DNA of 64,000 bases, taken from assembly GCF_036507355.1 (NCBI RefSeq), contig NZ_AP027878.1; one strand, 5' to 3'. Position 1 is the stretch's first letter; every line of letters starts with the position of its first letter. Made by a program: the position numbers and the translations under genes. Origin of the DNA: Escherichia coli (GTDB lineage: Bacteria > Pseudomonadota > Gammaproteobacteria > Enterobacterales > Enterobacteriaceae). Of this stretch, positions 10,943 to 11,728 are shown in pieces. The notes beneath the pieces were generated by a model that saw only the letters and a program-made list of their open reading frames with translations, was not told the origin of the DNA and did not search any database.

Positions 10943-10951
10943 CAGAGGGCA
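10943..10951. repeat. IS1 target-site duplication, left copy (CAGAGGGCA)
   Basis: Identical 9-mer at 11720-11728 directly flanking the IS1 ends. Confidence 0.85.
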
Positions 10952-11006
10952 GGTGATGCTGCCAACTTACTGATTTAGTGTATGATGGTGTTTTTGAGGT
11001 GCTCCA

Positions 11007-11282
11007 GTGGCTTCTGTTTCTATCAGCTGTCCCTCCTGTTCAGCTACTGACGGGGTGGTGCGTAACGGCAAAAGCACCGCCGGACATCAGCGCTATCTCT
11101 GCTCTCACTGCCGTAAAACATGGCAACTGCAGTTCACTTACACCGCTTCTCAACCCGGTACGCACCAGAAAATCATTGATATGGCCATGAATGGCGTTGG
11201 ATGCCGGGCAACAGCCCGCATTATGGGCGTTGGCCTCAACACGATTTTACGTCACTTAAAAAACTCAGGCCGCAGTCGGTAA
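11007..11282 (+). CDS. insA: IS1 InsA
   Basis: 91 aa, [40 protein letters not shown]. Confidence 0.95.
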
Positions 11283-11704
11283 CCTCGCGCATACAGCCGG
11301 GCAGTGACGTCATCGTCTGCGCGGAAATGGACGAACAGTGGGGATACGTCGGGGCTAAATCGCGCCAGCGCTGGCTGTTTTACGCGTATGACAGGCTCCG
11401 GAAGACGGTTGTTGCGCACGTATTCGGTGAACGCACGATGGCGACGCTGGGGCGTCTTATGAGCCTGCTGTCACCCTTTGACGTGGTGATATGGATGACG
11501 GATGGCTGGCCGCTGTATGAATCCCGCCTGAAGGGAAAGCTGCACGTAATCAGCAAGCGATATACGCAGCGAATTGAGCGGCATAACCTGAATCTGAGGC
11601 AGCACCTGGCACGGCTGGGACGGAAGTCGCTGTCGTTCTCAAAATCGGTGGAGCTGCATGACAAAGTCATCGGGCATTATCTGAACATAAAACACTATCA
11701 ATAA
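11201..11704 (+). CDS. insB: IS1 InsB (made as the InsAB' frameshift fusion)
   Basis: 167-aa frame overlapping insA in the -1 frame. Confidence 0.9.
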
Positions 11705-11719
11705 GTTTGAGTCATTACC

Positions 11720-11728
11720 CAGAGGGCA
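11720..11728. repeat. IS1 target-site duplication, right copy (CAGAGGGCA)
   Basis: Matches 10943-10951. Confidence 0.85.

Follow-up and report, generated by a model that had tools for sequence, protein, structure and literature searches.

When a complete IS1 is found between two identical 9-mers in a stretch of E. coli DNA, the questions that such a locus raises are whose IS1 it is, whether the short repeats on its two sides record an actual insertion into a site that can still be seen uninterrupted elsewhere, whether the element is still capable of moving, and what, if anything, it means for its neighbours and for the replicon carrying it. For the element described here (the window, as used below, is the whole stretch of DNA that was analyzed, 64 kb in length), the answer to the first of these is hardly in doubt: it is almost certainly the resident IS1 of bacteriophage P1, complete and intact, whose point of insertion is the 218 bp of AT-rich spacer that separate isaB from isaA, within the variable hxr-ssb region of this phage. 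The IS1 of P1, together with its flanking genes, is already known and already annotated, and the finding is, in this respect, a correct and ordinary one. Iida, Meyer and Arber (1978) are reported to have described the presence of IS1 in P1.

The original prediction, a 768-bp IS1 with identical flanking 9-mers, was confirmed by reading of the sequence, by a repeat finder and by a script, and the coordinates given for it with the duplications included (10943-11728) are exact. The two copies of CAGAGGGCA (repeat finder family D3) have a start-to-start spacing of 777, the 9-mer has just 2 occurrences on both strands of the 64-kb window according to the script, and the match between the two flanks ends sharply at it (...ATATT/CAGAGGGCA on the left vs. 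...TTACC/CAGAGGGCA on the right). The IS1 terminal-repeat pattern has 2 matches only in the window, where 0.01 would be expected, and these are the imperfect repeats of ~23 bp typical of the IS1 family (GGTGATGCTGCCAACTTACTGAT / GGTAATGACTCCAACTTATTGAT), the left one being exact and the right one having one substitution compared to those of R100 and K-12 IS1A (C to A at position 12 from the end, which is window position 11708 and IS1 position 757). Between the ends, the Pfam models PF03811, PF12759 and PF03400 (the last one matched over its full length) all scored well over their gathering thresholds, and TTAAAAAACTC at 11256-11266, lying within the insA/insB' overlap (11201-11282), holds the A6C core. 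The A6C motif is the site of the -1 frameshift from which the InsAB' transposase of IS1 results, and homologous IS1 copies bear the PGAP label “programmed frameshift”. In its length, inverted repeats, insA/insB' frames, A6C motif, 9-bp duplication and identity to the reference copies, the element is, in other words, structurally an IS1 in every respect (Table 1). A sigma-70-like match at 10959-10986 overlaps the left inverted repeat in a consensus scan whose matches occur at background frequency; a pattern for the ends of IS5 had no match in the window, a negative of little weight, and no Rfam RNA family was found in 9500-13500.

Table 1. Features of the IS1 locus and of its surroundings, in window coordinates.
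Feature	Coordinates	Strand	Evidence and remarks
isaB, 201 aa (ORF to 10833 with a TTG start)	10213-10818	-	phrog_30162, unknown function; 5' end on the side of the IS1 left end
Predicted sigma-70 promoter PisaB, TAGACA-17-TAAAAT	10898-10926	-	Consensus 10/12; annotated PisaB in NC_005856
Left target-site duplication copy CAGAGGGCA	10943-10951	.	Single copy at empty sites
Complete IS1, 768 bp, phage P1 resident IS1	10952-11719	+	NC_005856 22626-23393, reverse complement; annotated “insertion sequence:IS1”
Left terminal inverted repeat IRL GGTGATGCTGCCAACTTACTGAT	10952-10974	+	IS1 IR pattern matched without mismatch; annotated in P1
insA, 91 aa, zinc ribbon and helix-turn-helix	11007-11282	+	Zn_ribbon_InsA 1.3e-21 (PF03811), HTH_Tnp_IS1 4.7e-31 (PF12759) (Pfam); annotated insA
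insB' frame, 167 aa as ORF, IS1-type DDE domain	11201-11704	+	DDE_Tnp_IS1 2.3e-78 (PF03400), 1-131/131; annotated insB
A6C motif AAAAAAC, insA/insB' overlap	11258-11264	+	Located in the sequence
Right terminal inverted repeat IRR GGTAATGACTCAAACTTATTGAT	11697-11719	-	P1 annotation: “terminal IR of IS1; mutant”
Right target-site duplication copy CAGAGGGCA	11720-11728	.	Sequence, repeat finder
Terminator-like hairpin GGGTGC-TCTCTG-GCACCC, then T run	11777-11804	+	58 bp past the IS1 right end, just past the isaA stop codon
isaA, 320 aa in the P1 annotation (264 aa by PGAP)	11814-12776	-	phrog_2326; 3' end on the side of the IS1 right end
ssb	12806-13294	-	NC_005856 annotation; lyz also annotated nearby

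The attribution to P1, which the original prediction did not make, comes from sequence and annotation alike, the window being 99.9% identical to bacteriophage P1 over 3,601 bp (four P1 records) and the annotation agreeing with it: the gene order ddrB-hxr-isaB-IS1-isaA-ssb-lyz matches that of P1, and NC_005856, in which window position x becomes 34345 - x on the opposite strand, has the IS1, its inverted repeats, insA, insB, isaA and isaB annotated at the corresponding place. In the literature, the element is known as “native” or as the “resident IS1 of P1”, IS1 has been described as a P1 signature element (PMC6906374), and isaA-IS1-isaB counts among the variable regions recognised in P1-like phage-plasmids (PMC9603915; PMC6906374). 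Between 9800 and 13400, four positions set the window apart from NC_005856 (window 11213, 11249, 11252 and 11255, corresponding to IS1 262, 298, 301 and 304) and two from OP279344 (window 11344 and 11347), and the differences among the three P1 records over these 3.6 kb are all inside IS1. When the alleles are tabulated, K-12 IS1A-type bases are seen at IS1 262-304 in the window and in a longer patch, 262-396, in OP279344, both of which keep the markers of the P1 lineage, 486G and 757T; at the protein level, residue 81 of InsA is L in the window vs. F in reference P1, and the window patch matches the K-12 IS1A allele. Such a pattern suggests gene conversion by, or crossover with, the IS1 copies of the host, which may have taken place during the K-12 propagation of laboratory P1 lineages.

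As to whether the 9-bp repeats record an insertion, the original junction had been claimed to be exactly reconstructable and comparison with related elements lacking IS1 had been put forward as one way of checking it; both proved well placed, as the uninterrupted site was found on P1-like plasmids and the flanks of the window element, joined with one CAGAGGGCA, match such natural empty sites. On two IncY P1-like plasmids (NZ_CP123268 and NZ_CP123261), the joined flanks align in a single piece at 100% over 1200 bp, and on two further IncY P1-like plasmids (NZ_CP103706 and NZ_CP116167) they are likewise uninterrupted, at 98.1%; read base by base, NZ_CP123268 and NZ_CP103706 have exactly one CAGAGGGCA between the flanks and the gene order ddrB-hxr-isaB-isaA-ssb-lyz. 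Of the complete E. coli genomes, 5,426 in number, nine have the empty site, on P1-like plasmids (at 100% identity in 5/9), and five the IS1-isaA junction of the occupied site. The target itself is AT-rich, the 218-bp spacer having 32-35% GC and the 100 bp on each side 32-33%, and IS1 tends toward AT-rich target DNA. Four P1-like phages (MH422554, SJ46, vB_EcoM-813R1 and Ro157c2YLVW) were considered as further empty-site controls and set aside, since other genes replace isaB in them.

The surroundings of the site are, in general, anything but constant. The whole hxr-ssb interval (~10100-12800) is a replacement hotspot, in which related P1-like phages have entirely different genes where isaB and part of isaA would be, among them a gene for a DUF2829 protein and one bearing the annotation “terminase large subunit”, and this hotspot agrees with RD-2 and region B, two variable regions known from publications. 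A replacement is also seen on the P1-like plasmid pTK3888_2 (NZ_AP044772, segment 9292-10108, from a calf isolate), whose left junction (CAGAGGGCA/IRL) is identical and whose solo IS1, with the canonical right end, is followed by a replaced right flank: isaA is lost, a small unrelated ORF stands there, and the P1 backbone continues from ssb on. Read from its junctions, this arrangement points to an IS1-associated rearrangement at the P1 IS1 site.

The way in which IS1 elements insert is well established: once bound to the ~23-bp inverted repeats, InsAB' connects the element to target DNA that is cut with a 9-bp stagger. For the P1 element, the InsAB' transposase would have been made by frameshifting (-1) at the A6C motif of the insA/insB' overlap, would have joined IS1 to a 9-bp staggered cut in the isaB-isaA spacer, and repair of the stagger would have given rise to the direct CAGAGGGCA repeats that are now seen at both ends. 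Was it, however, a solo IS1 that made this duplication, or did a larger element arrive first? On the latter account, an IS1-autotransporter-IS1 unit of ~5.9 kb would have made the duplication, and homologous recombination between its two direct IS1 copies would then have removed the cargo and left the solo IS1 behind, with an unchanged duplication around it. Such a unit does exist at precisely this site. On pUTME-8-1 (NZ_CP157116, segment 40570-46474), what lies between these two junctions is 5,887 bp long and consists of IS1, a 4,351-bp autotransporter segment and IS1, with the variant right end in the right-hand IS1 copy only, as this scenario expects, and on pZBEC21_01 (NZ_CP143628) the autotransporter gene adjoins IS1 at the isaA junction. 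The natural replicons with both junctions, among complete E. coli genomes and PLSDB, all have more than 1.1 kb between the halves of the site (this being so in 6/6 of the PLSDB records with both half-sites), and a solo IS1 between both junctions is seen in laboratory P1 records only. The unit is also mobile: on the MARGA_3 chromosome (a human E. coli; segment 3108-9018), an IS1-autotransporter-IS1 module of ~5.9 kb interrupts fepE, its cargo 99.8-99.9% identical to that of the plasmid unit, its outer right end being the variant allele of P1, and an 8-bp duplication, GATTTTCG, surrounding it; an insertion in fepE with a duplication of its own makes this module a genuine composite transposon, common to phage-plasmids and chromosomes. 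Against a composite as the first arrival, however, stands the laboratory precedent, which is the opposite one, as Tn9 was built by recombination onto a pre-existing P1 IS1; moreover, pigs are the source of every one of the five or six plasmids with the composite, which maybe represent one recent lineage, and the single-nucleotide patterns are mosaic, a simple crossover of the two pUTME-8-1 copies not yielding the P1 IS1. All in all, we regard the arrival of the composite before the solo element as rather unlikely, though deserving of some credence; the tabulated alleles are too mosaic to speak for either order.

Another account would have the element be an immobile relic, that is, a dead IS1 whose transposition is blocked by the substitution in the right repeat and which matters as homology only. 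The annotation of NC_005856 itself leans in this direction by calling the element [quoted passage not shown], and the substitution is both real and rare, given that the exact last 60 nt were found in 22 of ~9,300 IS1-bearing E. coli records and in 12 PLSDB plasmids, the canonical end being present in thousands. The distribution of the copies bearing this end, however, speaks against a blocked element. Eleven copies outside the P1 site were retrieved and examined, all of them (11/11) being full-length IS1 and 7/11 having a perfect 8-9 bp duplication of their own. These seven lie at mlc in the LY180 chromosome (TGCTGGATC, 9 bp; segment 793-1560), at adiY in the HBUT-L chromosome (TATTATTCA, 9 bp; segment 793-1560), between ypfM and yffB, beside another IS1 copy, in the PK8277 chromosome (GGCATCTAA, 9 bp), at rihA in the XJ5.2 chromosome (CAATCGTCA, 9 bp), near ykgH in the FJ_Ec_21 chromosome (CGATATCC, 8 bp), near aslA in the HCP8S3_I1 chromosome (CGGTTTCA, 8 bp), and on the E. 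fergusonii plasmid pRHB41-C15_4, a small ColE1-type plasmid with a colicin E1 immunity gene and a MOBP relaxase (AGGTGACTG, 9 bp). As the variant end has been used repeatedly at other sites, the “defective” annotation appears unsupported; the composite transposon with its own duplication uses the variant end as its outer end as well, and both reading frames and the frameshift site of the element are intact. It thus seems quite improbable to us that the P1 IS1 is a relic of this sort; judging from where its copies are distributed, it looks still mobile and transposition-competent despite the substitution at its right end. The Ref function of P1 is reported, according to the title of Lu, Lu and Gottesman (1989), to stimulate the excision of IS1.

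The copies in LY180 and HBUT-L, which disrupt mlc and adiY, deserve a closer look, both being 768/768 identical to the reference P1 IS1, 486G included, in genomes where only 1-2 places match the IS1 end. We take both of these to be production strains obtained by engineering, and the most economical reading is that it was possibly P1's own IS1 that transposed into LY180 and HBUT-L, a P1 origin being deduced here from the sequence identity and from the strains having been engineered; searching the literature for IS1 insertions in LY180 or mlc returned nothing relevant. Gene conversion might, in principle, have spread the variant allele to IS1 copies after their insertion, which is unlikely in hubt-sl, where the search gave one IS1-end match only.

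The weakest of the alternatives, namely, that the 9-mers agree by coincidence or that the IS1 is an artefact of the assembly or of host contamination (conceivable in principle because IS1 is abundant in E. coli hosts, with a match in 4,967 of 5,426 E. coli genomes), may be dismissed as next to impossible, since a random 9/9 agreement at two fixed positions, here the very ends of the element, has a probability of 4^-9 = 3.8e-6, the same junctions recur in four independent full-length P1 records, in the partial records AF125376 and AJ000741 and in several natural plasmids, and the empty site has exactly one 9-mer.

Returning to a P1 IS1 that is active, we are inclined, by a rather slight degree, to believe that it has jumped to mlc (in the lineage of LY180, AQ15 and SL112) and to adiY (in HBUT-L and hubt-sl), and that, in nature, the same IS1 or its variant right end forms the IS1-autotransporter-IS1 composite moving between P1-like phage-plasmids and chromosomes. 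If this were true, P1 transduction would be an unrecognised source of IS1 mutagenesis, and should the P1 IS1 hop during transduction-based strain construction, strain engineers would be well advised to check for it.

What does the insertion mean for the genes on its two sides? The original prediction spoke of an AT-rich orphan gene and of a hypothetical gene upstream of ssb, the expression of either of which might be altered. The former, isaB, is AT-rich indeed (36.9% GC) and is not an orphan, being the whole of phrog_30162; its orphan status was rejected, as both the phrog_30162 assignment and the isaB half-site, which matches many P1-like plasmids at ~92-99%, show. The latter, isaA, was misplaced with respect to ssb: it shares the strand of ssb and lies transcriptionally downstream of it. 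The isaA start is ambiguous, the P1 annotation using the GTG at 12776 vs. the ATG at 12608 used by PGAP in relatives, and the shorter 264-aa protein is favoured by the PHROG profile phrog_2326 aligning from residue 60 of isaA only. Neither isaA nor isaB had a match in Pfam or PADLOC, and PHROGs returned families of unknown function only.

Of the two genes, isaA ends, with its stop codon, 94 bp short of the insertion, and isaB starts 133 bp downstream of it, with 25 bp separating the IS1 left end from the -35 of the predicted PisaB; it should be borne in mind that the promoter and terminator calls made here are consensus matches occurring at background frequency. From this geometry, it is plausible that only isaB would experience an effect on its expression, the IS1 separating it from the ssb-isaA transcription unit, and isaA expression should not be changed. 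In mechanistic terms, the element would probably uncouple isaB from ssb-isaA read-through and leave the predicted isaB promoter intact. Just to the left of IS1, there is also a predicted promoter on the + strand annotated in P1 as “Pins” (window 10891-10917); at the empty site, the predicted Pins and the terminator-like hairpin would bracket a ~100-nt unit on the + strand having no known product. A CRISPRi screen has shown ssb, isaA, insB, insA and isaB to be dispensable for P1 plaque formation (PMC10695390). With the position of the insertion being intergenic and all of its neighbours dispensable, its main consequence for P1 is probably not gene disruption.

The main role of the IS1 for P1 might rather be that of a piece of portable homology with an active end. 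It would serve, on the one hand, as the entry place for IS1-flanked cargo (Tn9 in laboratory P1Cm, the autotransporter module in swine plasmids) and, on the other, as a place of flank replacement and of sequence exchange with host IS1 copies. Both the P1 IS1 and the isa genes, whose name is short for “IS1-associated”, belong to the textbook picture of P1, to which nothing new is added by their recognition here; the locus is, at the same time, a clean worked example of an IS1 insertion whose empty target site is demonstrable in natural relatives. Of minor practical interest may be the apparent competence of the “mutant” end, the possible escape of IS1 from P1 into engineered strains and the natural composite at the same site. 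The P1 IS1 is a known cargo entry point (Tn9), and the presence of an autotransporter module at this site in natural P1-like plasmids bears on the uptake of accessory genes by phage-plasmids.

Compared with known systems, the element is closest to the IS1 of the P1 reference (NC_005856), with which it shares the site, the 9-bp duplication, the variant right repeat and the flanking genes, the two IS1 sequences being identical at 764/768 positions and their flanks at 100% over the 3.6 kb compared. The other reference copies, those of R100 (762/768) and K-12 IS1A (763/768), are hardly more distant from the window IS1 in terms of overall identity, and the R100/NR1 IS1 and K-12 IS1A likewise have 768 bp, the same inverted repeats, insA/insB', the A6C motif and duplications of 8-9 bp; 486G and the right-end allele 757T, however, are carried by the IS1 lineage of the P1 site, and neither is seen in the copies of R100 and K-12 that were compared. 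As for the composite arrangements, the Tn9 of the widely used P1 c1-100 Tn9 sits at the resident IS1; in P1Cm (IS1-cat-IS1), it places IS1-flanked cargo at exactly the P1 IS1 site, whereas the window has a solo IS1 and no cargo. The natural swine plasmids share a Tn9-like architecture between the same CAGAGGGCA repeats, their cargo, unlike that of Tn9, being a 4.35-kb autotransporter segment and not cat.
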